This document shows, piece after piece, positions 6,278-49,293 of a stretch of 64,000 bases of DNA (the first letter of the stretch is position 1; the number at the start of each line of letters is the position of its first letter). Source of the stretch: an uncultured delta proteobacterium (lineage in GTDB: Bacteria > Myxococcota > Myxococcia > Myxococcales > Myxococcaceae). The notes below the pieces were generated by a model that was not told the DNA's origin, did not search any database, and saw only the letters and a program-made list of their open reading frames with translations. The stretch is taken from the NCBI GenBank assembly GCA_963731795.1, contig CAVSWU010000003.1, positions 838,216-902,215 of the forward strand. The letters run 5' to 3'. Made by a program: the position numbers and the translations under genes.

Positions 6278-7578
6278 CACCGGGACTCCTTGATCTGACC
6301 GTCCGAAAACACGAGCCGGCCGCCGACCCACGTCTGTGCGACGCGGCCCTTGAGCAATCGGCCATTGAAGGGGGTATTCCGACTCTTGGAGAAGAACCGC
6401 TCCGCGTCCACCGCCCACTCCACCCCCGGGTCGACGAGCGTGATGTCCGCCGCAGCCCCAGCCGCCAGGTGACCGCCCGGCAAGCCGAATGCCCTCGCGG
6501 GCCCGTCCGTGAGCAACTCCACCGCCTTGAGCGGGCTCAGCACGCCCTCGTGCACCAGGGCCAGCGACAGGCCGAGCGCCGTCTCCAGCCCCACCACGCC
6601 GTTGATGCCCTTCTCGAACTCCACCTGCTTGTCGAGCACGCCGTGCGGAGCGTGGTCCGTCGCGATGGCGTCAATCGTGCCATCGGCCAGGGCCTCGCGG
6701 AGCGCCTCCACGTCGCGGCGCAGGCGCAGCGGCGGGTTCATCTTGGCGTGGGTGTCGTACTGGCCCACGGCCGTGTCATCGAGCGAGAAGTGATGCGGGG
6801 TGGCCTCGGCGGTGACGTGCAGGCCGCGCTTCTTCGCCTCGCGCACCAGGCGCACGCTGCCCTCGCAGGAGATGTGGGCGATGTGCAGGCGCCCGCCCGT
6901 CTCCTCCAGCAGCACCAGATCCCGAGCCACCATGGCCACCTCGGCCGAGGGCGGGATGGGCAGCAGCCCGAGCCGCGTGGCGGTAGGCCCCTCCGTCATC
7001 GCGCCCTTGCCGGACAGCGTGAGGTCCTCCTCGTGGACCATGACGGGGATGCCGAAGAGCGTGGCGTACTGGAGCGCGCGCCGCATCAGGGCGGCGTTCA
7101 TCACGGGGCGGCCGTCGTCGGTGATGCAGACGCAGCCGGCGGAGATCAGCTCGCCCATCTCGGCCAGCTCCTCGCCCTTGAGGCCCTTGGTGATGGCCCC
7201 CGCGGGGTAGACGTGGCAGAGCCCCGCGGCCCGGGCGCGCGACAGCACCAGCTCCGTCACGAGCGCGCTGTCGTTGACCACCTTGGTGTTGGGCATGGCC
7301 ACCACCGCGGTGAAGCCCCCCGCCACCGCCGAGCGGCACCCGGTGAGGATGGTCTCCTTCCCCTCCTCGCCCGGCTCGCGCAGGTGCACGTGCAGATCGA
7401 TGAAGCCCGGCAGCACCCAGCGCCCCTGGGCCTCCACCACCTCGGCCCCGGAGACCTGGAGCGGCGCTTCGGACACCTGCGCCACCTTGCCGTCTCGCAC
7501 GAGCACGTCACGCACACCGTCAACACCGCTGCGCGGATCGATCACCCGACCGCGGCGGAAGAGCACCGGGCCGCTCAC
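6277..7578 (-). CDS. pyrC: Dihydroorotase.
   Basis: [15 protein letters not shown]...[20 protein letters not shown]...DHAPH... The GTG start overlaps the pyrB stop by 4 nt (GTGA). Confidence 0.85.
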
Positions 7579-8465
7579 GAGCACACCTCCAGGATGGCCC
7601 GGCGCACGGCGACCCCATTGGCCACCTGCTCCAGGATGACGCTGCGAGCCCCGTCCGCCACGGCGGGGGCCAGCTCCACGCCCCGGTTGATGGGACCGGG
7701 GTGCATGACCAGCGCCCCGGGCTTCATCCGCTCGGCCCGCGCCTGGGTGAGCCCGAAGAGCCGGGAGAACTCGCGCGTGGAGGGGAAGAAGGACTCCGTC
7801 TGCCGCTCGAGCTGGAGCCGCAGGCACATCACCGCGTCCGCCTGGGGCAGCACCGCATCCAGCCTCGTCGTCACCTCGGCGCCCATCTCCTTCAGCCCCG
7901 CGGGCAGCAGCGTGGGCGGGCCGCACACCACCACCCGAGCCCCGAGCGCCGTCAGGCACAGGATGTTCGAGCGCGCCACGCGGCTGTGGAGGATGTCTCC
8001 GATGATGAGCACCGTGCGGCCATCCAGCGGCCCCCAGTGCCGCCGCAGCGTGAAGGCGTCCAGCAGCGCCTGCGAGGGGTGCTCGTGGGTGCCATCCCCG
8101 GCGTTGATGACGGCGCAGCGCACGTGCCGGGCCACCAGGTGCGGAGCGCCCGAGGAGCGGTGCCGGATGATGAGCGCCACCGGGCCCGTGGCCTCGATGT
8201 TGCGCACCGTGTCCAGCAGCGTCTCTCCCTTGGACACCGAGGAGCCCTGAGCCGTCCAGTTGAGCACCTGGGCGCCCAGCGACTTGGCGGCGATCTCGAA
8301 GGAGGTGCGGGTGCGGGTGGAGTCCTCGAAGAAGAGGTTGGCCACCACCTTGCCTTGAAGCACCGAGGTGCTCGCCGAGCCTCCTGGCAGATGAGCCTCG
8401 GCCCGATCGAGCAGCGTCTCGATCTCCTCTCGCCGCCAGCCATCAATTCCGAGCAGGTGTCTCAT
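7575..8465 (-). CDS. pyrB: Aspartate carbamoyltransferase catalytic subunit.
   Basis: MRHLLGIDGWRREEIETLLD...FFEDSTRTRTSFE...HPSQALLD...VMHPGP. These are ATCase motifs (STRTR, HPxQ, HPGP). Confidence 0.88.
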   Translation of the reverse strand: MRHLLGIDGWRREEIETLLDRAEAHLPGGSASTSVLQGKVVANLFFEDSTRTRTSFEIAAKSLGAQVLNWTAQGSSVSKGETLLDTVRNIEATGPVALIIRHRSSGAPHLVARHVRCAVINAGDGTHEHPSQALLDAFTLRRHWGPLDGRTVLIIGDILHSRVARSNILCLTALGARVVVCGPPTLLPAGLKEMGAEVTTRLDAVLPQADAVMCLRLQLERQTESFFPSTREFSRLFGLTQARAERMKPGALVMHPGPINRGVELAPAVADGARSVILEQVANGVAVRRAILEVCS

Positions 8466-8522
8466 AAAGCCGGGCCGCGCCCTAGCAGCGCCACCGCGGA
8501 GCGTCAAGCATCCGCGGACTCC

Positions 8523-9761
8523 TCACCGAACGGGCTCGAAGAAGCGGTCCAGCCGAAGGCCGGTTCCGCCGAAGAAGCTGCTCCCCAGGCCGCCGTACCC
8601 CAGCGACAACCACACGACCATGGCCTTGCCCTTGATGTTGCCGAAGGGAACATAGGCCGGAGCGTGGCCCGGGCCGATGAAGCCCACCCGGCTGTCCGAG
8701 CTGTTGTCCCGGTTGTCACCCATCACGAACACGTGGCCCTCGGGGACGATGAAGGGCCCCTCGGTGCGAGGCGTCACCGGGTGCGGATCCTGGAGCACCG
8801 CGTGGTTCACGCCATCCAGGTTCTCCTGGTAGCGGATCACGTCGTCGTCGTACCAATCCCCCTGCTGCGACAGGTTGTGCACGACATAGTCCCTGGAGAC
8901 GACCGTGCGGTTCTGCGGCTTGCCGTTGACGTAGACGACCTCGTTGATGAGCTCGACGCGATCACCGGGGATGCCGACGATGCGCTTGATGAAGTCCTTG
9001 TCCGTCTCCACGGGGTTGTTGAAGACGATCACGTCCCCGCGCGCCGGCGGCCGGACGATCTGGAACGGCACCTTGTTCATGAACGGGATGCGCACCCCGT
9101 AGATGAACTTGTTGACGAAGACCTGGTCGCCGATCTCCAGCGTCGGGAGCATGGAGCCGGAGGGAATGCGGTACGGCTCGATGAAGACGGTTCGGATGAG
9201 CAGCGCGATGAGCAGCGCCTTCACGAAGCCAGAGACCGTGTCCCAGCCGGACTGCTTGCGGTAAGCGCCCAGCAGCTCCTCGTGGAGCTTGTCGAGCGCC
9301 CTGACCTCCTTCTCCAGCTGGGGGATGTCCGCGGCCAGGGAGGCGTCCTCCACGCGCACGGCCTGCTCGGCGATGCGCTCGGCGGCGTTGGCCGGCAGCT
9401 TGCCGGGGACGCGCTTGAAGATGCGCTCGGCCTCGTGGAACAGCTCGCGCGCCTCGTGGCGGAGCTTGCGCAGGGCCGCCTCACGCTTGGAGACGATGCG
9501 CCACCCGAGCAGCGCCACCCAGGAGAAGAACATCGCCGCCCCGAAGAACTGCATGAGCGGCATGGCCCAGGTGGCGGACGACGGGATGTTCTCGATGAGG
9601 AAGAGGTACGGGATGAAGGTGAGCCCAACCGCCGTCAGCGGCGCCCACAGGCTGGTGATCAGCTGGCGCCACATCAGCCTCCGCCGGGCCTTGAGCTGCT
9701 CCGGGGTCCGGCGGGCGGTCAGGGCCTCGCCCAGCTTTATCGGCGTCGTCACGGCGGTCAT
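8523..9761 (-). CDS. lepB: Signal peptidase I with a long N-terminal membrane/coiled-coil extension.
   Basis: IPSGSMLPTLEIGDQVFVNKF...GDVIVFNNP...KRIVGIPGDRVE...VFVMGDNRDNSSDSR (S26 boxes B-E). Its start codon is adjacent to the lepA stop. Confidence 0.85.
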   Translation of the reverse strand: MTAVTTPIKLGEALTARRTPEQLKARRRLMWRQLITSLWAPLTAVGLTFIPYLFLIENIPSSATWAMPLMQFFGAAMFFSWVALLGWRIVSKREAALRKLRHEARELFHEAERIFKRVPGKLPANAAERIAEQAVRVEDASLAADIPQLEKEVRALDKLHEELLGAYRKQSGWDTVSGFVKALLIALLIRTVFIEPYRIPSGSMLPTLEIGDQVFVNKFIYGVRIPFMNKVPFQIVRPPARGDVIVFNNPVETDKDFIKRIVGIPGDRVELINEVVYVNGKPQNRTVVSRDYVVHNLSQQGDWYDDDVIRYQENLDGVNHAVLQDPHPVTPRTEGPFIVPEGHVFVMGDNRDNSSDSRVGFIGPGHAPAYVPFGNIKGKAMVVWLSLGYGGLGSSFFGGTGLRLDRFFEPVR

Positions 9762-20084: not shown

Positions 20085-22214
20085 TCAAGGGTGCGCGATG
20101 AGCAGCAGGGTCGGGGCGCGCGTCATCACACAGTTCAGCGCCTGCCGGAGCGTCTCGGGGTCCAGCGCGGCGAAGCTCTCATCCAGGATGACCAGGTCCG
20201 CCCCCTGGAGAATGGTCCGCGCCACATAGATGCGGCTCTTCTCCCCATGCGAGAGCTGCCAGCCGGTCTCCCCCACCATCTGCATCATGCCTCCCGGCAT
20301 CCGGTCGAGCAGCGCCCCCAGGCCCAGCTCCCGGCAGATCGCCTCTGCTTCCTCGAGATCCACGGTCCGGGGAGGCCACTGCCGGCCCAGCAGCAGGTTG
20401 AAGGCGATCGGTGCGGAGAGGATGTGGTTCTCATGGAACTGGGGCGCGGACGCCACGTGGCGGCGCCAGCCCACGAGCCCCAGCGTGGGCTTGTCCAGCC
20501 CGTGCAACAACAGCAGCCCCTGGCTGGGTGCACGCAGGCCCGCGAGAATGGAGCCAAGCGTGGACTTGCCACTCCCGGACGCGCCCTCGAGCAGGAGCCG
20601 ATCGCCGGCGCGAACTTCCAGGCTGCAGTCGCGCAGCACGGGGCTCGGTCGCCCGGCATGCTGGAACGTGAGCGACTGCGCATCGAGAACGGTCTCCTCC
20701 GGCACACTTCCCTGGCGCGGAGAGGCCGCGAGCGCCGCCGTGGTCGTCACCTCAGCGCGCGCCGTCGCTCGCTGGAGTGGAGCCACCTGCTCCCAAGCCG
20801 CGGCGGCGCCCAGGAGGTCCGGTAACCCCGCGACGAGCAGTCGGAAGGCACGAAAGGCCAGCAGGAGCCCCCCGAGCGCAAGCGCGAGCCCAACCGGTTG
20901 AGTCCTCCCCTCGACGAACGCGTGCCCGAGCGTGGCGACGGCTACCACCAACCAGCCGCGCGGCACCAGGACCACCATCCAGGCGTACATCCGGTCCAGC
21001 CTCCGAGACGCCTCGAGGTATTGCTCAAGCGCGAGGTCATCGGCCCGGTACCAGCGCTCCTGGGCTTCCTGAGCCACGCGGGTCCGGTGACCCGCCATCT
21101 CCTCCACCAGCCCATGGGTCATCGTCATGCGGATGCGTGTCCACAGCTGGCGCTGCCGCATGTAGCGCACCGACAGCAGGACGGTCAGTCCCACCCAGGC
21201 GAGCAACCCCAGGTTCTGCGCCCACCCGTACGGTCCGAGGCCGAGCACGACTGCCGCCATGCCGAGCTCGACCATCGCCACCACACAGACGAGCCCGCCC
21301 CCGACGGTGAGCGTCTCGATGGCATCGGCCTCGATGACCCGGCCGAGCAACCGCCCTGCCCCCTCATGTCGTATCTCGCCCGGATCGAGCAGCAGTGCCC
21401 CGAACAGCAGGCGCTGCTTGAGCGCGCTGCCCAGCTCGATTCCCATGAGCCCCGCGAGCCAGCTGGAGGCAATCCGGAACGGCAATGTACAGATGAGCAG
21501 CAATCCCCAAGCGACCAGCCAGGACAGCTCGAGGTTCCCTGACAGCACGCTCCGTCCCACCACCCACCAGGAGAACAGGAGCAGGGCGTACTCGGCGGCG
21601 CGCGCGAGCAGGAGCACCGCCAGATGACGGCCCAGCCGCGCCAGGGAGAGCTGCCCTAGCAGTCCGGCGCCGGGTTGCCGGCGGAGCAACCAGCACCCCC
21701 GCAGCACGGTGCCCCCGAGTTGATCGCGGAGGATTGCGCGGCGAGAGCGGGCACGCTGGCGCTCAGGAACGTCGGCGCTCTCGAGCACGACGTCGACCGC
21801 GGGCAGCAGCGGCGCCTCGACAATCTCGCAGAAGGCCGAGCGTACCACCTCCACGTCAACCTCCACCCTCTCATCCTCCGTGGTGCGGAGATGGACCCTG
21901 CCGCGGCGGCTCCCCACGAGCACGAGGAAGCGCGGCTCGGGGCCGAAGAGCCGCACAATGGAGGGCCCGGCATGGCGCAGGAGTGCCTCCACATCCTTGT
22001 AGCGAGCCTCTGCGTACTCGGCCTCGAGGCCCAACCAGCTCGCGGCGCCCTCCATCCAGCGCGCCAGCGCAAGGCCCCCGGGCTGAACAAGGTCAGCGGC
22101 GGGAGCAGGCAGCCCCGTGGTACGCACGGGAAGCCCTGCCGCTCGCACGAGGACCTCTATCGCCTCACCCAGGCGGTGGAGGGGCCAGCACGCCTCCGGC
22201 GGAAGGACGCTCAT
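20085..22214 (-). CDS. ABC transporter with fused permease and ATPase, and a ~180-aa N-terminal accessory domain (NHLM/bacteriocin-exporter partner type).
   Basis: Six predicted TM helices followed by LLLEGASGSGKSTLGSILAGL...LSHGEKSRIYVARTIL...LVILDESFAALD (Walker A, signature, Walker B). Its ATG overlaps the upstream gene's stop (ATGA). Confidence 0.8.
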   Translation of the reverse strand: MSVLPPEACWPLHRLGEAIEVLVRAAGLPVRTTGLPAPAADLVQPGGLALARWMEGAASWLGLEAEYAEARYKDVEALLRHAGPSIVRLFGPEPRFLVLVGSRRGRVHLRTTEDERVEVDVEVVRSAFCEIVEAPLLPAVDVVLESADVPERQRARSRRAILRDQLGGTVLRGCWLLRRQPGAGLLGQLSLARLGRHLAVLLLARAAEYALLLFSWWVVGRSVLSGNLELSWLVAWGLLLICTLPFRIASSWLAGLMGIELGSALKQRLLFGALLLDPGEIRHEGAGRLLGRVIEADAIETLTVGGGLVCVVAMVELGMAAVVLGLGPYGWAQNLGLLAWVGLTVLLSVRYMRQRQLWTRIRMTMTHGLVEEMAGHRTRVAQEAQERWYRADDLALEQYLEASRRLDRMYAWMVVLVPRGWLVVAVATLGHAFVEGRTQPVGLALALGGLLLAFRAFRLLVAGLPDLLGAAAAWEQVAPLQRATARAEVTTTAALAASPRQGSVPEETVLDAQSLTFQHAGRPSPVLRDCSLEVRAGDRLLLEGASGSGKSTLGSILAGLRAPSQGLLLLHGLDKPTLGLVGWRRHVASAPQFHENHILSAPIAFNLLLGRQWPPRTVDLEEAEAICRELGLGALLDRMPGGMMQMVGETGWQLSHGEKSRIYVARTILQGADLVILDESFAALDPETLRQALNCVMTRAPTLLLIAHP

Positions 22215-24896
22215 GAGGTGCGCTCCTTCTCAATAGGCCGGCCGTCCACCATCCGCAGCCGGCGCCATGCGGCACTCGCCCAGAGCTCCTGGCGGACCTG
22301 CGCCTCGGTCTCCAGCAGGGCGCGATAGCGGGAGCCCTCGCGGGCCGCGAGCACCGTGGGAGGCCCATCCTCGATGATGCGCCCCTCGTCCATCACGACG
22401 ACGCGATCGAACCCGCGCGTCTCCGCGAGATCGTGGGTGATGCAGAGCATCGTCACCCCTGCCCACGCCTCGCGGCTCCGCGCGAGCAGCACGCGGCGAA
22501 GATCGCGGTCGAGTCCGCGGAAGGGCTCATCCAGGACCGCGAGCCGCACCCCCGGGCGCAGCAGTGCGCGGCCCAACCGCACGCGCTGCCCTTCTCCTCC
22601 GGAGACGAGCGCACCGCCCTCGCCCAGCGACGTCTGCAGCCCGTCCGGCATGGCCTCGAGCACCCGCTGCAGCTCGACAGCCTTGATGACACGCCCCACC
22701 CCCTTCAGGCCCTCGGAGCCATAGGTGAGGTTGTCGATGAACGAGCTGTTCCAGAGCTGCACCGCGGGCTCCACCCAGGCCGTCCGCCGCCGTAGCGCCT
22801 CGAGGCGGCCGGCGCTCAGCGGACGCCCATCCATCAGGACCCCTCCCTCACTGGCTCGATGCCAGCCGAGCACCAGGCCCACCAGCGTCGACTTGCCGGC
22901 TCCGGAGGCGCCCACGACGGCCACGTGCTCGCCGGGAGCAATCTCGAGCTCCACGCCGCTCAAGAGCGTATTCCCGGCCGCGACGACACTGACGCCCTCG
23001 AAGCGCAGGGCCACAGGCGCGTCCTCGGCATGGGGGAGCTCCTCGCCCCGCGCCTCTTCATCCGGCGCGCGAGGCTCTTCCAGCGCGCCAAGAGGCTCGA
23101 ACAACCGCAGGACGATGTTGCGGTGCCGCGGGAGCTGCCTGGCCAGGAGGGCAAGCTCCTGCCCGAGGGCCGGGATGTTCAGCGCCCAGAACAGGAGGAG
23201 CAGCGTGCCCGACATCCCCTCCATGTGGGGCAGGGCTCCGACGAAGAGCCACGTGGCGAAGCCCAGGGCGATGACCGTGGTGAGGACATCCGTCATCACC
23301 CCCGTCCGCAGCAGCGACTTCGCGGCCCTCGCCCATTCGACCAGCAAGCCCTCGTGCTCCCGCCGTACCATCCGCTCTGCGCCGTGCGTGCGGATGGCCG
23401 TCAGCCCGAGCAGCGCATCCAGGTAGAAGCGAGTGAGTCCTCCCGCATGGCTGCGGACACGCAGATCGCGCTCGATGAACGGCTTCTGGAGGACCAGGGG
23501 AACGAGCACGGCGGCGACCGCGGCGGCAATGGCGCGCGGAGCGCTGCTGGGATCGAGCCAGATGATGCCTGTCGCGCTCAGCACCATCTCCATGACCTGG
23601 CGCAAGAACCTGCCCGCGAGCTCCGGGGAGCTGGCGCAGCTGATGGCTGTTGTGGCAGCGCTCGGCCATGTCGGACATCGGGCGGCTCTGGAGGTAGCGA
23701 TCTCCAAGCCGGGGAATCTTCTGCACGAAGGCGATGCGCAGGCGTGCCTCGAGGTGGCGCCCGAGCCACTGGGTGCCCAGCACGAGGGGCACCTCGAGAA
23801 GGAAGAGGGCCATGAGGAAGGCGAGCAGCGCGGCGAGCGTACCGAGGCGCTGCTCGAACAGCACCAGCTTCGCTCCCACGTCGAGCATGCTCTTGAACAG
23901 GATGGCCAGGACTGCCATGGCGGCCGCCGCAACGGCGAAGCCGGCCGCGAGCATGGAGATGGTGAGGACACCACTCTGGCGAACCAGGCGCAGCAGCTCC
24001 CGGCCAGGACGCGCCTGCGGCTCGCGCAGCGCGGCCACCAACTCCGGAGAGCGCGGCTCCGGGACAGGCACGCCCTCGCCAGCCGCCTTCCGCGTGCCAC
24101 GGATGGTGATGAGGACCGCCCCGCGCAGCGACAAGCTCTCTCCCAGCTCCGGTGAGGGCGGCGCTGGCCGGACACACCAGAACATCTCGGGGATCACCTG
24201 GGTCTCGTCCCCCTCCCCCGCGGCCTCCCGGGCCGTGGACACGAGGTGCTCGAGCAGCCGAGCCGTCCTGGGACCTCGCGGCATGCCCCTCGATGCGGCG
24301 ATGGACTCGACCATCCGCACCGCGGCGTCGAGCCTCGCCGTCCCCCTCCACCCGGGCTCCGCCATGGCCGCGTCGATCAGCCTCGACCCTTCGTCCGCGA
24401 GGCCAACGCGGCGGCACCGCTGCCGGAGAACCCGCAGGAACGCGGGCGCCGCCGCGAAGGCCGTCCAGCTCGGCACCTGGATGAGCGAGGTGTGGACATA
24501 GACATCCTTGAGGAGTTCCTGGCAGGTGGTCCAGCGGCGGCCCGATGCCGGATCCATGAGCTGGATGAGAGGCCCCAGTCGCTTCCAGAGCACGACGAAG
24601 TGCGGGGCTCCGCTGGGCAGGCGCACGACAAGGATTGCGGGGATCGCCTCGGCCTCGTGGAGCAGGAGGTGATCGACCGGAGTCATGAACTGCTCGGCAT
24701 CCAGCCCGAGCTCGAGCGCGACCTCCTCGATGGTGTCGATGGATGTCCCATCGACGTCTGTCTGACAGGCCTCGCGCAGCCGGCCGTAGCTCACGTGAAC
24801 GCCCCACCCCTCGAGCAGGCACTTCAGCGACGCCGGGCCGCAATCCATGGCCGAAGTCTGTACTACCTCTGGAGCGAGCACGTTTCGGCGCATCAT
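22211..24896 (-). CDS. Peptidase-C39-domain ABC transporter (bacteriocin/RiPP-type maturation-secretion protein), frameshifted by 1 nt near 23623-23628.
   Basis: N-terminus: VVQTSAMDCGPASLKCLLEGWGVHVSYGRL...HFVVLWKR (C39 Cys/His). TM region, then VVGASGAGKSTLVGLV...LVSGGEGQRVRLGRAL...LAVLDEPFRGLD. The two halves are in different frames, joined at ...SHQLRQLP|ELAGRFLRQVMEM across a cccc run. Confidence 0.8.
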
Positions 24897-24902
24897 GGGT
24901 CC

Positions 24903-26081
24903 TCAGGCTCCTGTGCCACCACTCGCCTGACGCCTCTCGAGCATCCGGCCAGCGGCACGAAGGACGAGTTCCGCGGGCGAGGCTCGCTCCACCTGCACCT
25001 CCACTGAACCTGGCAGTCCATGCTGCAGGGGGATGGCAGGCGGCGCATGCCCCACGATGCGCAGCTCCACGCGCACCTTGCCATCGCGGACCTCGCTGCC
25101 GACACTCTCCACGAAGAGCTGCAGCATTCCGTACTCGGCCCATGGAAATCCGTCCAAGCGCAGCCGCGCCTGCTGACCAGGCCGAATGCGCCCGAGCGCC
25201 ACGTCCGGCGGAAAATCGGCGGTGACCTGCAGCCCTCCGGGTGGAACGACTGCGCTCAGCCGGAGCCCCTTGGTCACGACGGAGCCAGGCTGGAGCACCA
25301 CAATCTCCCCCAGCTTGCCGCTCGCGGGAGCCCGGATGCTCCGCAGCTCGATGGCGTGCTGCAGCGCCTCGATGTCCGCCTGCGCCTGCGCCTGCTGCCC
25401 GCGAAGCAGCTCGAGCTCACGTGCAAGCTTGGCGAGGTCCGTCTCCAGCTCCTCTCGCTTGAGGCGGTTCTCCGCGTCGATGCGGCCGACCCCCTCCTTC
25501 CAGGCCTTGGCATCGGCGCCCTGCTGCCGTTCCTCGGCGGTCATCCTGTCGCGCTCGGCCACCGAGATCATCCCCTTCTCCTGGAGGATGGCGGAGCGCT
25601 CTGCCTCGGACTGGGCGAGCCTGGCCCGCGCCGTGGCGCCCTGCTGGCGAGCGCGCGCCTCCGCGAGCTGCGTTCGCGCGACCCGCTCGTGCTCAGCCAG
25701 GGTCCGTGTCTGTGCCTCGACTTCCCGCTCGAGCAGTCCGTGCTGCGATGCCAGGCTCTCCACGAGCTTCCGCTTGGCGGCCAGCTCAATCTCGAGCGCC
25801 GCAGTATCGAGCCGGACGAGCACCTCCCCTGCCTCGACCTGCCTGTCGAGCGCCAGGGCGGATGACACCACCTTGCCGTCGACCTCCGACTCGATGGGGT
25901 GCACCGCCCCCCCCACCTCGACCCTCGCATCCGAACTCACCGCATAGACGGAGATGCGGAAGATGAGAAACCACGCGCCCCATACACCGCACAGCAGCAC
26001 GGCAATGACGAGCCACCGGCGGTAGCGGTGCGCCCCGTCGGCGGCGAGGGAGCGCAGGGAGCGATGGAATGGTATCGACAT
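24903..26081 (-). CDS. HlyD-family membrane fusion / secretion protein.
   Basis: N-terminal TM (WLVIAVLLCGVWGAWFLIF), a long coiled-coil (LEIELAAKRKLVESLASQHGLLEREVEAQ...), and a C-terminal β-barrel region (IRAPASGKLGEIVVLQPGSVV). Confidence 0.8.
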   Translation of the reverse strand: MSIPFHRSLRSLAADGAHRYRRWLVIAVLLCGVWGAWFLIFRISVYAVSSDARVEVGGAVHPIESEVDGKVVSSALALDRQVEAGEVLVRLDTAALEIELAAKRKLVESLASQHGLLEREVEAQTRTLAEHERVARTQLAEARARQQGATARARLAQSEAERSAILQEKGMISVAERDRMTAEERQQGADAKAWKEGVGRIDAENRLKREELETDLAKLARELELLRGQQAQAQADIEALQHAIELRSIRAPASGKLGEIVVLQPGSVVTKGLRLSAVVPPGGLQVTADFPPDVALGRIRPGQQARLRLDGFPWAEYGMLQLFVESVGSEVRDGKVRVELRIVGHAPPAIPLQHGLPGSVEVQVERASPAELVLRAAGRMLERRQASGGTGA

Positions 26082-26090
26082 ACCCGCAGC

Positions 26091-27647
26091 TCAAGAAGCA
26101 CGCTGCTCCGCGGAGCGCGCCGGGGTCATGGACGGTGGAGGAACCTTCGGCAACACCCGGAAGAAGCGCTGCTCGCCCCGCCGGTAGTACGCCAGCAGGT
26201 CATCCCAGGCGCGGTAGTTGAGCTCCAGGACCAGGAGCATGTAGCCCATGGCCAGGCGCTGGACCGCGGGAGAGACCGTCTTGACCTCCGCCATCATCAA
26301 CCGCGGGATGCTGGTGTGATGATACTTCTCGTTGAGGAGGATGTGCTTGTCGAGCGACATGAACTCCCCCACGAGTCGCTTGTACGGTTCGTCCAGCGGG
26401 GAGTCGGCACCGAGCACGCCTTCGGTGATGAAGATGGATACGATATAGGCGACAGGGTCCATCATCCCCAGTTGCGTGAAGACATCCACGTAGGCGTAGT
26501 GCAGCGGCAGCGGCTGAGCGCCCTTGATCTGCTCCTCGGACAGGCCCAGCTCGCGGCAACTCTGGTACTCGAGCGCGTCATGCCCGACCTCCTCCGCGTA
26601 GTACCGGAACGCCTTCGTCCGCAGAGAGGCATTCAGGCGCCTGGGCAGGAGCGTGGCGACAATCTCGGGGAAGCGGGTCGTCACGAGGTAGTCCTGCAGG
26701 TAGCGCCCGTGGACCAGGATGAGATCCGCATCCGGGCCGGAGAGTGCCTTCAGGTACTCGGGCTCGCCGACCCGGATTGACAGCTCACGGCCGACCCGCT
26801 CGATCTCCAGCATGAACTCGATGCCCGTCATGCACTCCCTGGGCTCGTACGGCGCCTCGCAAAAGCGCCGGGACCTGGAAGCATCCGTGCCGCTGACCAG
26901 ACACTCCGCGAGCCCGTTGAGATGGCGCTGCGCATCCACGGAGGAGTACGCGCCGCCTGCGAGCTCGCAGAGCAGCTCATTCAGGCCAGGCTGCGCTCCC
27001 GTCTCTGCCTCGAGCCGGCTCTGGAGCAGCAGCAGCGCCTGCGTGCAGCACACCAGCGACAAGGGCGCGAGCCCCCGCTGGTAGAGCCCCTGCACCGCAG
27101 CGATCTGCTGATAGAAGTTGCCCAGGCGCAGGATCTCCGGAGCGCTGAGCTGTCGGTGCTCCGTCGGCGGCAGCGGCTTCTGCAGGGGCAGCGTCCGCGA
27201 GAACTCCGACGTCAGCCCCGTGTAATGCGCACCGAGCGTGCGGACATTCGCGAGGAGCGCCTGCCGCCGTCCCGGTTCCACCTCCTGCAGCACCGCCTCG
27301 ACACAGGCGGCAATCGAGTCACTGAGCCGGGTCACCTCGGCATCCCGGCGGCTCTTGACCTCGTGCGCGGCATCCCGCAACAGGCCCAGGTAGTCCATCG
27401 TCGTGAGCAGCTCGCGCCAGTCAGCGTCCGGGGGAGCGGACAGGACCTCCTTCCAGGTGGGCGACCCGGGCTTCCGCAGCGCATCCAACCGGGTGACGAT
27501 GTCCTGAGGCGTCGTGGAGCTTCCGTGCTCGATCACGTACTCATTGGCCTCAGCCGTGACACACACCTCGCCGGTCGCCTCATCAATCCGCACGCCTGAG
27601 ATTGCAAGATACGGAGACTCATACTTCGTGATGCTCCAGGCTTCCAT
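26091..27647 (-). CDS. RRE (PqqD-like) domain fused to a heme-oxygenase-like (PF14518/iron-containing redox enzyme family) domain. This is the large paralog, 518 aa.
   Basis: N-terminus: ISGVRIDEATGEVCVTAEANEYVIEHGSSTTPQDIVTRLDAL...LLTTMDYLGLL (PqqD-like). C-terminus: AFRYYAEEVGHDALEYQSCRELG...EKYHHTSI, with E/H motifs shared with the two downstream paralogs. Confidence 0.6.
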   Translation of the reverse strand: MEAWSITKYESPYLAISGVRIDEATGEVCVTAEANEYVIEHGSSTTPQDIVTRLDALRKPGSPTWKEVLSAPPDADWRELLTTMDYLGLLRDAAHEVKSRRDAEVTRLSDSIAACVEAVLQEVEPGRRQALLANVRTLGAHYTGLTSEFSRTLPLQKPLPPTEHRQLSAPEILRLGNFYQQIAAVQGLYQRGLAPLSLVCCTQALLLLQSRLEAETGAQPGLNELLCELAGGAYSSVDAQRHLNGLAECLVSGTDASRSRRFCEAPYEPRECMTGIEFMLEIERVGRELSIRVGEPEYLKALSGPDADLILVHGRYLQDYLVTTRFPEIVATLLPRRLNASLRTKAFRYYAEEVGHDALEYQSCRELGLSEEQIKGAQPLPLHYAYVDVFTQLGMMDPVAYIVSIFITEGVLGADSPLDEPYKRLVGEFMSLDKHILLNEKYHHTSIPRLMMAEVKTVSPAVQRLAMGYMLLVLELNYRAWDDLLAYYRRGEQRFFRVLPKVPPPSMTPARSAEQRAS

Positions 27648-27674
27648 GGCACTGACTCCTCAAGCAAAGCATGC

Positions 27675-28670
27675 TCAGTCGAACACGCGGGGGATACGGC
27701 TCTCCGGCCTGCCGTAGTAATCGACGATCTGCCCATCCATGATGACCAGGGACTCGACGAGGATGCCCATGTGGAGCATGACGATCCGTTGCTCCTCGTC
27801 CGAGACGCTCGGGACCTCGGCGAACAGGACTTCGCTGATCTCCTCGTGGTCGCCGTCCTTGTTGATGAAGGCATGGTCGAGGATGGGCTTGTGGAATGCC
27901 TCCGGCAGTCCAACCTCCACGCATCGCTTCTTGAATGCCTCGTGGAACTCCTCGCTCGTCTCCTCGAAGAGGAAGAGGGCCGCCTTGAACGAGAGCGGAT
28001 GCTGGCGGGCGTACACCCCTAGCGAGGAGCAGAGGGTGAACGTCATGGGCAGTGGCACCAGCCGGTCCAGCTCCTTGCGCCCGATGCCCACGGCGGCCAG
28101 CGAGCGCTCGATGAGGCGGTCATGGTGGAGCTCGGACACGAAGAAGTCCTGCAAGGTGCTCAGCGTCTTCCTCGTGTCATGGTGCGACAGCGCGGGGGCC
28201 AGCAGCCCCGGGCACATGCGAACGATGTGGTAGTACTCGAGCACGTAGCCGATGAGCTGCTCGCGGCCCAGGCTGCCATCCACCAGGCCCTGGTAGAACG
28301 AGCGGGCGCTGTACTTGCGCTTCGCGCGCTCCATGAAGCGCTGCAGCTCCCGGTAGAACTGCGCCCCGCGCTTGGCCTTCCGCGGCTGGGTGGACGTCTC
28401 GGTGAGCAGGCCCAGGCGATCGAGATCCCGGCAGATCCGGCCGACCTCCCTGGAGAGCGCCGGCAGCCTCGTCGAGAGCTCCTCCAGGGAGTTTCCTCCA
28501 CGCTGAAGCATGTCGAGCAGGCGCACCGAGTCCGTGCGCGTCTCCGGCGCCAGCTCGAGCTCGTACTCCTCGTCGCGGTACTGGAGGACGACGATACCGT
28601 CCGTGCTCGTCCGCATCGTGACCGCCTCACGCAGACGCGGCTGTTGGAAGAAATTAGTCGTTACAGTCAT
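27675..28670 (-). CDS. RRE (PqqD-like) domain fused to a heme-oxygenase-like (PF14518-type) putative di-iron oxidase, paralog B.
   Basis: N-terminus: GIVVLQYRDEEYELELAPETRTDSVRLLDMLQRGGNSLEELSTRL...ICRDLDRLGLL. C-terminus: LEYYHIVRMCPG...FVSELHHDRLIERSLAAVGI...FEETSEEFHEAF...ILDHAFINKDGDHEE. Confidence 0.65.
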   Translation of the reverse strand: MTVTTNFFQQPRLREAVTMRTSTDGIVVLQYRDEEYELELAPETRTDSVRLLDMLQRGGNSLEELSTRLPALSREVGRICRDLDRLGLLTETSTQPRKAKRGAQFYRELQRFMERAKRKYSARSFYQGLVDGSLGREQLIGYVLEYYHIVRMCPGLLAPALSHHDTRKTLSTLQDFFVSELHHDRLIERSLAAVGIGRKELDRLVPLPMTFTLCSSLGVYARQHPLSFKAALFLFEETSEEFHEAFKKRCVEVGLPEAFHKPILDHAFINKDGDHEEISEVLFAEVPSVSDEEQRIVMLHMGILVESLVIMDGQIVDYYGRPESRIPRVFD

Positions 28671-28703
28671 GGTCGCCTCGAAGGCAGCAGCGCTGCCCCG
28701 GAA

Positions 28704-29696
28704 TCAGATGGCCGACAACCGGCGCACGAGCTCCTCCGCACCCGTCTTGGGGGAGTAGAACTTCCAGATGGCGGTGTAGAAGTCGTCGTACATCTCGACG
28801 AACAGCCGCATCTCCCGCCGCAGCCGCGCCATGGTCTCATCATCCACGAAGGGGATCTCCGCGAAGAGGAGGCGTGTCAGGTTGCCGTGCTCTCCCTTGC
28901 GGTTGATCTCCGAGTGGTCACGCATCGGCTTGATGAACCCGGGGGGCAGCTGGGCCTTCTTGCAAGCCTCGATGAAGAGGTCCTCCTCGGGGTCCTTGCC
29001 CTCGAGCACCCCCAGCGTGGCGAAGAAGAAGAGGGGATCGCTGGCCGCCCAGTACGAGAGCGCATTGCACAGCGCCAGCGTCTCGGGCAGGGGCATCATG
29101 TCCTGCACGTCGGCGCGGCTGAGCCCGAGCGCGAAGATCGCCTTGATGATGATCTCGTCGTGGCCGTACTCGCTGCAGTAGAACTCGTTCATCAGCTGGC
29201 GGACCCGGGTGTTCGGGATGTAGGGCAACACCGGGGAATCAAAGAGGCTCTCGCGGAACAAGAAGTGGTAGTTCTCGATGGCAAGGCCATAGAAGGCCGT
29301 CCTGGGACAGCCGACCGGGTCCTCCAGCAGGTGGGTCCAGAAGATGTTGCGGTTGATGCTCTTCTCCATCAACGCGTTGGCGAGGTCCTCGAGCTCGAGC
29401 AGCGCCTGGGAGCCCGTGCGAAGCTCGAGGGTGCTCGCATCGTCGAGCAGTCGGCAGCGCTCCAGGTCCTCCAGCAGGCTCCCGAAGCGCTGCCGCTGGT
29501 CCGTGTCCAGCCCTCGCTGAATATCGCGGACCGTGCGTCTCCCATCCAGCTGCTTGAGAAAGCCATGGATGTCTTCAGTGGACGAGCCCTCGGGCTCCAG
29601 GGCGAACTCCACCCCATCCCGGGCCAGCGAAAGCTCGGCGTCTGTGATTGAGACCTCGCCAATCAGACGAGGGCGAGAGTCAGGTGACTCGAACAT
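28704..29696 (-). CDS. RRE (PqqD-like) domain fused to a heme-oxygenase-like (PF14518-type) putative di-iron oxidase, paralog C.
   Basis: Start at MFESPDSRPRLIGEVSITDAELSLARDGVEFALEPEGSSTEDIHGFLKQLDGRRTVRDIQ (PqqD-like). Then AIENYHFLFRES...EFYCSEYGHDEIIIKAIFALGL...MRDHSEINRKGEHGN. Confidence 0.65.
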   Translation of the reverse strand: MFESPDSRPRLIGEVSITDAELSLARDGVEFALEPEGSSTEDIHGFLKQLDGRRTVRDIQRGLDTDQRQRFGSLLEDLERCRLLDDASTLELRTGSQALLELEDLANALMEKSINRNIFWTHLLEDPVGCPRTAFYGLAIENYHFLFRESLFDSPVLPYIPNTRVRQLMNEFYCSEYGHDEIIIKAIFALGLSRADVQDMMPLPETLALCNALSYWAASDPLFFFATLGVLEGKDPEEDLFIEACKKAQLPPGFIKPMRDHSEINRKGEHGNLTRLLFAEIPFVDDETMARLRREMRLFVEMYDDFYTAIWKFYSPKTGAEELVRRLSAI

Positions 29697-29776
29697 GGTG
29701 TCGCTCTCCCTTGATGTTGAACTCGAGTGGCCGCGGTGGATGGGTGACACAGTCCATACACGTCTGGCGACCCGCC

Positions 29777-29802
29777 CCGGAGCAGTGAGCTCACCGCTCC
29801 GG
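29777..29802 (-). promoter_or_regulatory. Strong RNA hairpin in the 128-nt spacer between the peptide gene and the first modification-enzyme gene, an attenuator or processing site candidate.
   Basis: The mRNA strand CCGGAGCGGUGAGCUCACUGCUCCGG forms an 11-bp stem (one G-U pair) with an AGCU loop. It is GC-rich with no U-tract. Confidence 0.5.
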
Positions 29803-29823
29803 GACGCTTTCCACCTGGGACAA

Positions 29824-29991
29824 CTACAGGTGCACTGCGATGAGAGCACCCGCCATCACGCCCGTCTTCAGGCGGATCTTCAGAGCGCGATGCTCCGTCA
29901 CGACCTCCTGTTTGAGCTCGGTCGCGCTGCTCTCCTTCCTGGCCTCGGTTTCGGTCGCCATCGTTTCCTCCTGGTCTGCGTTCTTCTGCAT
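29824..29991 (-). CDS. Candidate RiPP precursor peptide (55 aa; 45 aa if translation starts at the second ATG, 29961).
   Basis: MQKNADQEETMATETEARKESSATELKQEVVTEHRALKIRLKTGVMAGALIAVHL. Both ATGs have Shine-Dalgarno sequences (GGTGGAGG, AGGAGG). The N-terminus is charged and helical, leader-like. The C-terminus is hydrophobic, with Gly/Ala and one His. It is co-directional with the RRE enzymes and the exporter. Confidence 0.5.
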   Translation of the reverse strand: MQKNADQEETMATETEARKESSATELKQEVVTEHRALKIRLKTGVMAGALIAVHL

Positions 29992-30196
29992 CGTGCCTCC
30001 ACCTTGGAAGCACACCTCGATTGATCCGCGAGGATTCGAATGTGACGCCCTGGGAGCAGAGTTGCTTCTTGTATGACGGGCGGCCATGCGGGCACCGATC
30101 CCCGAAGGCTCCGCGAGCACCTGGAGCAGCATGGGTGGAAGCTTCTCGGGGAGATCTGGGTTGAGCGCGATATGAGCCCGCGATAGGAGCCGCCGG

Positions 30197-31363
30197 ATGA
30201 GACAACCCACCATTGGAATACTGGCCGGCATGGGGCCGAGGTCCACGGCCCCCTTCATCGACCTGGTGATAACAGAATGCCAACGTCAGTACGGCGCGAC
30301 AGATGACATCGACTTTCCGAAGATGATGGTCTGCTCGCTGCCGACCCCGTTCTACCCGGAGCGCCCCACCGACCATGCCGCGATGGAAGCCACCCTGCGC
30401 ACAGGGCTCCAGGACCTGGCGCGGACCGGGGCTGACTTCATCGCCATCCCCTGCAACACGGCACACATCTACTACCCGCAGCTGAAGGACAGCATCGATA
30501 TCCCGCTGTTGAACATGGTCAGGCTGGCGCTCGAGGCCATTCCCGAGTCCGCGAGGTCCATCGCGCTCATCGCGGCGCGCCCCACGGTCGAGGCTGGCAT
30601 CTACCAGGAGGGCCTCCGGGAACGCGGCTGTCAGGTAGCCGATGTGGACTGGCAGCGAGAGGTCGATCAGCTGATCGGTGCGACCAGGACCTTGAGGGAT
30701 CCTGCCCTGTTCCGCTCACGCTGGGGCGAGCTGGCACGACGGGCGAAGCTGGCCGGGGCAGACACGCTCCTCATTGCCTGCATGGACCTGAGCGCGGTCA
30801 GGCTCCACCTGGACACCGAGCTGCGGGTCCTGGATGCGGGGCAATGCCTGGCTCAGGAGATCGTTGCCCAGTGGCTGTCACGCCGCGACCGCGACGCGGA
30901 GGATCCGGCACGTCACGAACGTCATCGCGGGCCCTACAGGGTGACCTCGGATCCAAAGCAACTCGATATCGCGGCGATACACGCCTACCTCACCCGCTCC
31001 TACTGGGCCGAGGGAATCACGAGAGAGACAGTCGCGCAGTCGATCCAAGCTTCCCTGTGCTTCGGGCTCTTCGACAATGCTCGCCAGGTGGGCTTCGCGC
31101 GGGTCATCACGGATCATGCAACCTTTGCCTACCTGTGTGACGTCTACGTCCTCGAGGAGTACCGCGGGCAGGGCCTGGGGACGTGGCTGGTGAAGAGCGT
31201 CACCGAACACCCGGCGCTGACAAGGGTTCGCCGGTTCCTCCTGGCCACCCGGGATGCGCATGGGCTGTACTCGAAGTTCGGCTTCTCCCCCCTGCAGGCG
31301 GCCGGCCGGTTCATGGAGATCTTCCGGCCAGAGCTCTACAAGCCGGCACGTAGAAACCAATGA
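30197..31363 (+). CDS. Asp/Glu racemase-family domain fused to a C-terminal GNAT N-acetyltransferase domain.
   Basis: N-terminus: IGILAGMGPRSTAPFIDLV...IAIPCNTAHIYY...LLIACMDLS (the two Cys motifs of Asp/Glu racemases). C-terminus: VGFARVITDHATFAYLCDVYVLEEYRGQGLGTWLVKSV (GNAT Q/RxxGxG/A). Confidence 0.7.
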   Translation: MRQPTIGILAGMGPRSTAPFIDLVITECQRQYGATDDIDFPKMMVCSLPTPFYPERPTDHAAMEATLRTGLQDLARTGADFIAIPCNTAHIYYPQLKDSIDIPLLNMVRLALEAIPESARSIALIAARPTVEAGIYQEGLRERGCQVADVDWQREVDQLIGATRTLRDPALFRSRWGELARRAKLAGADTLLIACMDLSAVRLHLDTELRVLDAGQCLAQEIVAQWLSRRDRDAEDPARHERHRGPYRVTSDPKQLDIAAIHAYLTRSYWAEGITRETVAQSIQASLCFGLFDNARQVGFARVITDHATFAYLCDVYVLEEYRGQGLGTWLVKSVTEHPALTRVRRFLLATRDAHGLYSKFGFSPLQAAGRFMEIFRPELYKPARRNQ

Positions 31364-49180: not shown

Positions 49181-49293
49181 CCAGAGAGTGTGGACCCCAA
49201 TATCCGCCAACACACCTGAGGTCCGAAAGTTGCGTGCAGGACTTCGCCGGAGTGACAACGCGCTATGCTCTCTCCCCCTAGAGGTGTCCGTCC

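Follow-up and report, generated by a model that had tools for sequence, protein, structure and literature searches.

What does the small open reading frame (ORF) at the head of a minus-strand operon in an uncultured delta proteobacterium (Myxococcota, Myxococcaceae) encode? The DNA analysed, referred to below as the window, is a stretch of 64,000 nucleotides (nt) from GenBank assembly GCA_963731795.1 (contig CAVSWU010000003.1, positions 838,216 to 902,215), and all coordinates are positions within it unless another locus is named. An earlier sequence-only reading had taken this ORF, at 29824-29991, for a candidate precursor. Our sequence comparisons indicate that its product is probably the substrate peptide of three heme-oxygenase-like dimetal oxidases (HDOs) encoded next to it, in a pathway of the type that yields peptides made on ribosomes and altered after translation (RiPPs).

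The peptide gene and its start codon

Related loci were collected by scanning one genome per species, which gave 76 loci (denoted L); counts of 72 loci given below include the window and L001. Minus-strand translation of 29824..29991 gave exactly MQKNADQEETMATETEARKESSATELKQEVVTEHRALKIRLKTGVMAGALIAVHL*, which agrees letter for letter with the ORF proposed before. Both of the ATGs reported to be preceded by a Shine-Dalgarno sequence were found, with GGAGG at 29996..30000 for the ATG at 29991 and AGGAGG at 29967..29972 for the ATG at 29961. The second of these Shine-Dalgarno sequences sits inside the upstream extension (29962..29991). The start that gives 55 amino acids (aa) is restricted to the window and L001, and the upstream frame of L002 is broken by indels. 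The window and L001-L006 all have a Shine-Dalgarno-preceded ATG for a product of 43-47 aa; the best start candidate of L044 is a Shine-Dalgarno-preceded TTG with a 40-aa product. We took the 45-aa product because the second ATG is conserved and the 55-aa start is confined to the window and L001. The real start is thus probably the second ATG, and the extension is probably not translated as part of the peptide. The gene of the sequence-only reading is real, but its product is probably 45 aa long, from the conserved start, and not 55 aa.

A search of 5.8 billion proteins found an identical peptide and two 80%-identical 45-aa homologues, whose last 21 residues equal those of the window peptide; one of the two lies in the fully syntenic operon L001. 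Over the last 22 codons in seven Sorangium-like loci, the variable sites are distributed 7/3/15 over the three codon positions, and the differences between the window and L001 or L002 within the invariant part are all synonymous. GC content by codon position is 0.63/0.41/0.83 in the peptide gene and 0.62/0.39/0.89 in HDO-A, which is the same pattern, and the neighbouring genes behave likewise. The reading frame is kept across phyla and the substitutions are concentrated at third positions, the opposite of what would have spoken against the ORF. Judged by these comparisons, the ORF is genuinely a gene, and a conserved one.

Neither Pfam nor NCBIfam (June 2026) has a family that matches the window peptide or five diverse relatives, in agreement with the earlier statement that it belongs to no obvious database-known family. 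An Rfam scan of 29500..30400 gave no match. A scan for sigma-70 promoters and intrinsic terminators around the ORF found none, which is expected and uninformative for a GC-rich myxobacterium-like genome. Further precursor copies were not found in the 64-kb window, where the only other frame ending in His-Leu and a stop (HL*), at 49278, is unrelated.

Linkage of the peptide to the HDO genes

A small ORF ending in HL* was found upstream of HDO-A in all of the 72 loci whose HDO-A keeps its N-terminal domain. By chance, frames ending in HL are rare: the window has 1264 open frames with 15 or more codons, and just 2 of them have this end. Most loci have fewer than 260 nt between the peptide gene and HDO-A, and the widest gap is 552 nt, in L044; the window has 128 nt, with both genes on the same strand. 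Across the 72 loci the short ORF is thus adjacent to and co-oriented with the genes of modifying enzymes, as is expected of a RiPP precursor. When a profile of 26 diverse peptides was searched against the database, 83 proteins were obtained. All but one of them (82) end in HL, and in the remaining one the stop is read through. Every name that the source gives to any of these 83 database peptides is "hypothetical protein".

The order peptide, HDO-A, HDO-B, HDO-C is kept across phyla and forms the invariant unit. Among the loci collected, named hosts include Sorangium, Burkholderia, Paraburkholderia, Robbsia, Chromobacterium, Pseudomonas, Photorhabdus, Vibrio, Enterovibrio, Sphingomonas, and Lysobacteraceae. 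Metagenome-assembled genomes (MAGs) add Actinomycetota, Chloroflexi, Acidobacteria, Nitrospinota, and Eremiobacterota, and the hosts of the module also span Myxococcota and Burkholderiales. On this evidence of gene order, the peptide gene is obligatorily linked to the three HDO genes.

Six loci (L063, L071, L072, L075, L077, and L078) had no HL* ORF, and in these the HDO-A match begins only at about residue 86-95. A long, different ORF ends just upstream of the HDO match in L063, L071, L072, L075, and L078, which we presume to resemble a thiamine-diphosphate (acetolactate-synthase-like) enzyme; L077 is a 2-kb fragment. These six loci probably belong to another pathway, in which a related catalytic domain works without a RiPP recognition element (RRE).

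Two loci deserve separate mention. On plasmid p4 of Robbsia andropogonis (NZ_CP139165.1, L079), a 27-aa relative, MSQATTKQPVIVVKPRNPRPVLIPVHL, is encoded at 6825..6908 of the locus and is unannotated in RefSeq, and HDO-B and HDO-C of this locus carry the label "hypothetical protein". In a Pyrinomonadaceae MAG (L038), a second precursor ending in RVADASGKPTLIAIHL was found at ~13642 on the minus strand, opposite in strand and just past HDO-C; by sequence, some clusters therefore have two precursors.

The three HDO enzymes and the RRE

All three HDO genes carry the Pfam signature "iron-containing redox enzyme" (PF14518), or TENA-THI4-PqqC, and PF03070 matches too. HDO-A and HDO-B share 29% identity over residues 8-301 (E = 8e-34). 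HDO-C shares 23% identity with HDO-A over the heme-oxygenase-like (HO-like) domain (E = 9e-12) and is syntenic in most loci; no fold could be assigned to its first 250 aa. The motifs E, ExxH, E, and HxxxNxxxxH, which supply three His and three Glu, are kept at ≥95% in the families of HDO-A, -B, and -C. The conserved ligand positions are E145, E180-x2-H183, E236, and H266-x3-N270-x4-H275 in HDO-B, and E352/E353-x2-H356, E409, and H435-x3-N439-x4-H444 in HDO-C. Three His and three Glu are expected for an HDO that binds two metal ions; however, the mangotoxin enzyme MboA has Asp in place of the Asn, and metal binding is predicted.

An AlphaFold model of HDO-A, with a predicted local distance difference test score (pLDDT) of 86, gave Foldseek matches to the HO-like structures 3dde, CtCADD, PqqC, and AetD. 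According to this model the catalytic domain has the HO-like fold. The N-terminal domain was modelled as a PqqD-like winged helix with a three-stranded sheet, and structure comparison points to an RRE. We made the assignment by structure because the sequence matches were below threshold, with wHTH-PRTase_assc and PaaA-like_N as the only ones obtained by sequence-based RRE detection. With an RRE domain and an HO-like fold, these enzymes would therefore be built to bind a leader-type peptide. Since the peptide is conserved, is coding, and adjoins enzymes with an RRE, the precursor reading is supported, and the proposal of a precursor at the head of the operon has gained strong support.

The relatives of HDO-A number in the hundreds. 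In a library clustered at 50% identity, 451 representatives were found at E ≤ 1e-3 and 48 at E ≤ 1e-30. Some of these proteins are of double length: P0206, P0218, P0233, P0237, and P0283 (690-716 aa) each contain two HDO-A-like stretches and appear from their sequences to be natural fusions of two paralogous RRE-HDO enzymes. In Burkholderia, an extra divergent HDO-B-like gene (24-26% identity) lies at ~8050..9035 on the minus strand of L012 and L076, upstream of a cluster of the 60-aa type and on the opposite strand.

Anatomy of the peptide and proposed mechanism

Over the last ~19 residues the peptide alignment contains no gap, and these residues therefore keep a constant distance from the C-terminus. 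Conservation was counted over 39 distinct tails, with the C-terminal residue as position 0. Leu at position 0 and His at position −1 are invariant (39/39 tails each). Ala or Pro is strongly conserved at −3, and Leu at −5, Pro at −7, and Arg at −8 occur in 32, 29, and 26 of the 39 tails, respectively. Positions −14 and −16 are occupied by Ile, Val, or Leu, and positions −13 and −17 mostly by Lys. The N-termini vary freely in length and sequence, and the peptides are 17-66 aa long. The ~60-aa form has an additional conserved N-terminal region, TVHEVK..NTFDGKKADLYINTGxLGGK. A variable leader followed by a conserved recognition segment and a core is the architecture of a RiPP precursor, and we propose that RALKIRLK is the recognition sequence bound by the RRE.

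The window peptide contains a single His, as the sequence-only reading had observed, and this His is the penultimate residue. It has no Gly-Gly, no Tyr, and no repeats. What that account overlooked is the invariant C-terminal His-Leu and the three RRE-fused heme-oxygenase-like oxidases that are the main partners of the peptide.

From these data we infer that the RRE binds the peptide and that His-Leu is modified, as well as how it is oxidised, where the peptide is cut, and what kind of product results. The N-terminal RRE of the enzymes would bind the basic, β-strand-like segment RALKIRLK, and the fixed distance from this segment to the C-terminus would bring His44-Leu45, with its free carboxylate, to the dimetal site, where the HDOs would oxidise His-Leu with O2, possibly in three successive steps. 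In the Sorangium-like clade, to which the window belongs, the C39 domain of an ABC (ATP-binding cassette) exporter would cut the modified peptide after Ala37-Gly38, and the product would be secreted via HlyD/ABC1/ABC2 as a modified heptapeptide derived from ALIAVHL. A stem-loop past the stop codon would keep the precursor transcript in excess over the enzyme transcript.

Exporter and cleavage site

The operon continues with genes for an HlyD adaptor, a C39 peptidase-containing ABC transporter (PCAT), and a second ABC subunit (ABC2), so the cluster includes a cognate ABC transporter with a C39 peptidase, frameshifted in the window. The Peptidase_C39 match has E = 3e-18, and the catalytic Cys and His motifs are readable (QTSAMDCGPASL and APHFVVL). 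The HlyD/C39-ABC/ABC2 set was found only in the window, L001, L003-L006, and L044, all of the Sorangium-like clade. By this distribution, the exporter is a clade-specific add-on to the HDO module.

All 7 exporter-bearing loci carry the motif [M/A]AG, against only 1 of the 65 loci that lack the exporter (Fisher p = 5e-9); elsewhere the residues are usually x-R-P. With a slash at the proposed cut, the tails of the exporter loci read MAG/ALIAVHL, MAG/PVVAVHL, MAG/RIMAVHL, and AAG/PNELLPVHL, so that Ala-Gly stands 7 to 9 residues from the end. C39 peptidases canonically cut after GG, GA, or GS, and positions −4, −7, and −12 relative to the cut are hydrophobic (review PMC10885120). A cut after AG has Val at −4, Lys at −7, and Leu at −12 (2/3 hydrophobic), whereas for a cut after GA only −4 (Met) fits. 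The AG register is favoured because it is conserved in all seven exporter loci and fits −4 and −12; on these sequence data, cleavage at AG/ALIAVHL, which would leave a core of 7 residues (9 in L044), is more likely than at GA/L. The G-A pair, which the sequence-only reading had picked as the C39 site, was rejected as a conserved site, as it is canonical in the window alone and the orthologues read GP or GR (MAGP, MAGR, and AAGP). The conserved pair is Ala-Gly, and no GG, GA, or GS stands at −2/−1 of it. Two other statements of that reading held: the peptide has no Gly-Gly site, and its cleavage would be atypical.

Weighing the alternative readings

Several observations weigh against a RiPP-type pathway that ends in an exported peptide. 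Many clades lack both a protease and a peptide exporter and have in their place a class-III aminotransferase (41 loci), an ATP-grasp ligase with an MFS exporter, or an EamA exporter, along with a GNAT acetyltransferase; such companion genes agree better with a small-molecule product. A fusion of an amino-acid racemase with a GNAT domain is encoded in the window, too. As to the enzymes, Asn replaces, in the third metal motif, the Asp of MboA, the RRE model is of moderate confidence (pLDDT 76), and no sequence profile detects the RRE. As to export, Ala-Gly is non-canonical for C39, with Lys rather than a hydrophobic residue at −7, and the PCAT gene of this genome has a +1 frameshift at ~23625..23628. 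There the window reads CTCCCCGG and L001 reads CTCCCGG, with the extra C in a C-run (23625..23628, minus strand). The frameshift breaks the PCAT gene into two frames, behind the peptidase domain and an initial stretch of the membrane domain; in L001 the protein is intact (893 aa). It could be a homopolymer sequencing error, or the exporter may be inactivated in this strain.

The alternative that survives best, and which we regard as possible, is that the peptide is a disposable scaffold, like those of pyrroloquinoline quinone (PQQ), mycofactocin, and the pearlins. In that case the HDOs would remodel the C-terminal Leu or His-Leu, and the remodelled piece would be set free as a small metabolite resembling an amino acid, which might be an antimetabolite. 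The GNAT would give the producer protection, with the racemase or aminotransferase acting on what is set free. This is compatible with the ORF as the HDO substrate and differs only in the final product. The aminotransferase in 41 loci, the ATP-grasp gene (L-amino-acid-ligase-like), the EamA and MFS exporters, and the GNAT in 27 loci speak for it, as do the racemase-GNAT fusion next to the window peptide and the 60-aa clade (Burkholderia, Sphingomonas), which has neither exporter nor protease. The invariance of only the last two residues fits it as well, although conservation extends to positions −3, −5, −7, and −8. Against it, there is no gene for a peptidase that would release the piece, and the clade of the window has exchanged the small-molecule exporters for C39-ABC/HlyD and gained the AG motif, which implies export of a short peptide and not of an amino acid. 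The peptide exporter of this clade thus favours a short modified peptide as the final product.

It is improbable that the peptide is an accessory or regulatory protein of the HDOs, such as an activator or assembly subunit, and not their substrate. The conserved N-terminal region of the ~60-aa forms could fold, and minimal clusters lack both exporter and protease. But the forms of 17-27 aa are too short to fold alone, conservation is strongest at the very C-terminal end, the accompanying enzymes have an RRE, and a peptidase-exporter is linked to the peptide in this clade.

Still less credible is an unmodified bacteriocin or signal peptide with a double-glycine leader, for which the HDO genes would be mere neighbours. 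Transport genes of the NHLP type, a charged N-terminus, and a hydrophobic C-terminus would agree with it. However, the link of the peptide to the HDOs is universal and its link to the exporter is found in one clade only; moreover, there is no conserved GG, GA, or GS, a core of 6-7 residues is too short, and NCBIfam gave no match to an NHLP or Nif11 leader. A chance open frame in GC-rich intergenic DNA, which the small size, the lack of a known family, and the lack of a detected sigma-70-type promoter might suggest, is refuted by conservation across phyla of very different GC content, the coding-type substitutions and third-position GC, and the invariant C-terminus.

The reading of the ORF as a precursor whose product would be oxidised by the HDOs is the best supported one. 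On balance, we lean towards a new and widespread class of RiPP or peptide-scaffolded metabolite, with three RRE-fused HDOs and O2-dependent chemistry on a C-terminal His-Leu.

Comparison with known systems

The system follows the logic of RiPPs (precursor, RRE, tailoring enzymes, and PCAT) yet matches none of the precursor families compared. The thiovarsolin pathway uses the precursor VarA, the heme-oxygenase-like VarO (proposed as an Arg dehydrogenase), and a YcaO/TfuA route to the thioamide (PMC6511847). VarO is also the sole HDO cited for ribosomal peptide modification in a mini-review on HDOs of March 2026. The VarO cluster, too, has an ATP-grasp ligase and an MFS exporter. In contrast, VarO is a single-copy accessory tailoring enzyme for which no RRE fusion is reported, and the module described here has three core HDOs and an unrelated precursor. 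Neither YcaO/TfuA nor a repeating precursor was found; Pfam assigned the operon proteins only to HO-like, HlyD, C39, and ABC families.

Biosynthesis of PQQ likewise combines a small peptide (PqqA), an RRE protein (PqqD), and a protein of HO-like fold (PqqC), and natural PqqC-PqqD fusions (5vrd, 5sxy) are among the structural matches. It differs in needing the radical S-adenosylmethionine (rSAM) enzyme PqqE and a Glu-x3-Tyr motif, and in its domain order, since here the RRE precedes the HDO. The window peptide contains no Tyr and the operon no rSAM gene. PqqC is not known to require a metal cofactor.

In mycofactocin biosynthesis, MftA ends in Val-Tyr, and this invariant extreme C-terminal dipeptide is oxidatively modified, under RRE direction, by the rSAM enzyme MftC. 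A short peptide with an invariant dipeptide at the extreme C-terminus is found here too. However, the dipeptide here is His-Leu, and genes for an rSAM enzyme and for an MftE-like peptidase are both absent. Pearlin scaffolds are lengthened at the C-terminus by a LanB-like, tRNA-dependent PEARL ligase; a lantibiotic-dehydratase-like domain was detected by Pfam in no operon protein.

The multinuclear non-heme iron oxidases (MNIOs; DUF692, as in MbnBC, TglHI, and the bufferins) are TIM barrels, unlike the helical HO-like bundle of the HDOs. They act mostly on Cys, Asp, or Tyr. In the HDO system the enzyme itself carries a fused RRE, and the putative target is His-Leu. With NHLP/Nif11 precursors and their PCATs our system shares the same set of three export genes, including a C39 PCAT with catalytic motifs. 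The leader differs in being short (38 residues) and in ending with Ala-Gly; no leader model matched, and the transporter scores lie far below the NCBIfam cut-offs.

By sequence, the closest solved structure to HDO-A is MboA, the HDO acetylenase of mangotoxin (PMC13185094; PDB 9ypi; E = 2e-5), a distant similarity in which the PDB chain of this 250-aa protein aligns to the HO-like domain of HDO-A alone. The MboA cluster was chosen for ATP-grasp ligases that avoid ribosomal or non-ribosomal peptide synthetase machinery (PMC13185094), which suggests that the substrate of MboA is non-ribosomal.

We found no published account of RRE-fused HDOs or of His-Leu-terminated peptides in the literature searched, with subscription-only literature outside its scope. 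The only HDO tied to ribosomal peptides in that literature was VarO; the other papers concerned MNIOs. HDOs are a fast-growing family known for N-oxygenation, C-C cleavage, and formation of alkynes and nitriles, and they are almost unknown on peptides. If the reading is true, the class would be spread over soil, plant-associated, and insect-associated bacteria, with short precursors mostly unannotated in RefSeq. Precursors of 17-60 aa are routinely missed by annotation, and His-Leu-stop is a simple signature with which to search for them. A module of one peptide and three HDOs in dozens of cultivable genera would offer a testable route to new peptide chemistry, and might yield bioactive peptides or antimetabolites from well-studied producers.

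Other features of the locus

The positions of the features in the window are listed in Table 1.

Table 1. Features of the peptide-HDO operon and its divergent neighbour in the window.
Feature	Position	Strand	Basis or remark	Sequence
Precursor peptide gene, 45 aa + stop (probable start)	29824..29961	minus	Translation; 45-aa homologues P0002 and P0003 begin at the same Met	MATETEARKESSATELKQEVVTEHRALKIRLKTGVMAGALIAVHL
Upstream in-frame extension, probably untranslated	29962..29991	minus	Alternative ATG; only in the window and L001	MQKNADQEET
Basic, β-strand-like segment, residues 25-32 (proposed RRE-bound)	29866..29889	minus	Alternating hydrophobics and Lys, fixed C-terminal spacing	RALKIRLK
Ala37-Gly38, proposed C39 cut after Gly38	29848..29853	minus	Next residue A, P, or R	AG
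Proposed core	29827..29847	minus		ALIAVHL
Invariant His44-Leu45	29827..29832	minus	All copies	HL
GC-rich stem-loop, 15 bp	29773..29806	minus	17 nt past stop, no U-tract; −42.7 kcal/mol, z = −4.2	
HDO-A, 330 aa (predicted)	28704..29696	minus	N-terminal RRE + HO-like dimetal oxidase domain	
Putative RRE domain of HDO-A	~29427..29696	minus	~Residues 1-90	
HDO-B, 331 aa (predicted)	27675..28670	minus	Full-length HDO-A paralogue including N-terminal domain; PF14518, TENA/THI-4	
HDO-C, 518 aa (predicted)	26091..27647	minus	~250-aa N-terminal region + HO-like domain	
HlyD-family periplasmic adaptor	24903..26081	minus	PF13437; weak matches to NHLM_micro_HlyD and other adaptor models	
C39-peptidase ABC transporter (PCAT)	22211..24896	minus	Peptidase_C39 residues 11-130, ABC_tran, partial NHLM_micro_ABC1	
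Second ABC transporter subunit without peptidase domain	20085..22214	minus	ABC_tran, ABC_membrane, partial NHLM_micro_ABC2	
Divergent gene, Asp/Glu-type racemase (30197..30901) fused to GNAT acetyltransferase (30902..31360)	30197..31363	plus	Pfam, NCBIfam	

None of 200 shuffled sequences folds as well as the stem-loop behind the peptide gene, which is kept in L001 and L002 with altered stem bases. Comparable hairpins lie 3′ of the peptide stop in most loci, and those of AT-rich genomes have T-runs. Placed between the precursor gene and the enzyme genes, the stem-loop probably acts as a partial terminator or stabilises the mRNA. Such hairpins typically accompany precursor genes whose transcription exceeds that of the enzyme genes.

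The best NCBIfam match of the divergent racemase is the cysteate racemase CuyB, below the cut-off, and this racemase is confined to the Sorangium-like clade. The GNAT part belongs to an uncharacterised subfamily, and homologues of it (43-90% identity) adjoin the module in the 27 loci mentioned above, the window included, in many phyla; the closest solved structure is the uncharacterised XCC2953 (2ozh). The GNAT may serve as a self-resistance or tailoring acetyltransferase.

There is a mild hint that the HDO module was acquired horizontally. GC content is 0.63-0.66 over the peptide and HDO genes (26000..31000) and 0.69-0.73 in the flanks. In Robbsia andropogonis (L079), the module lies on a plasmid beside a transposase.

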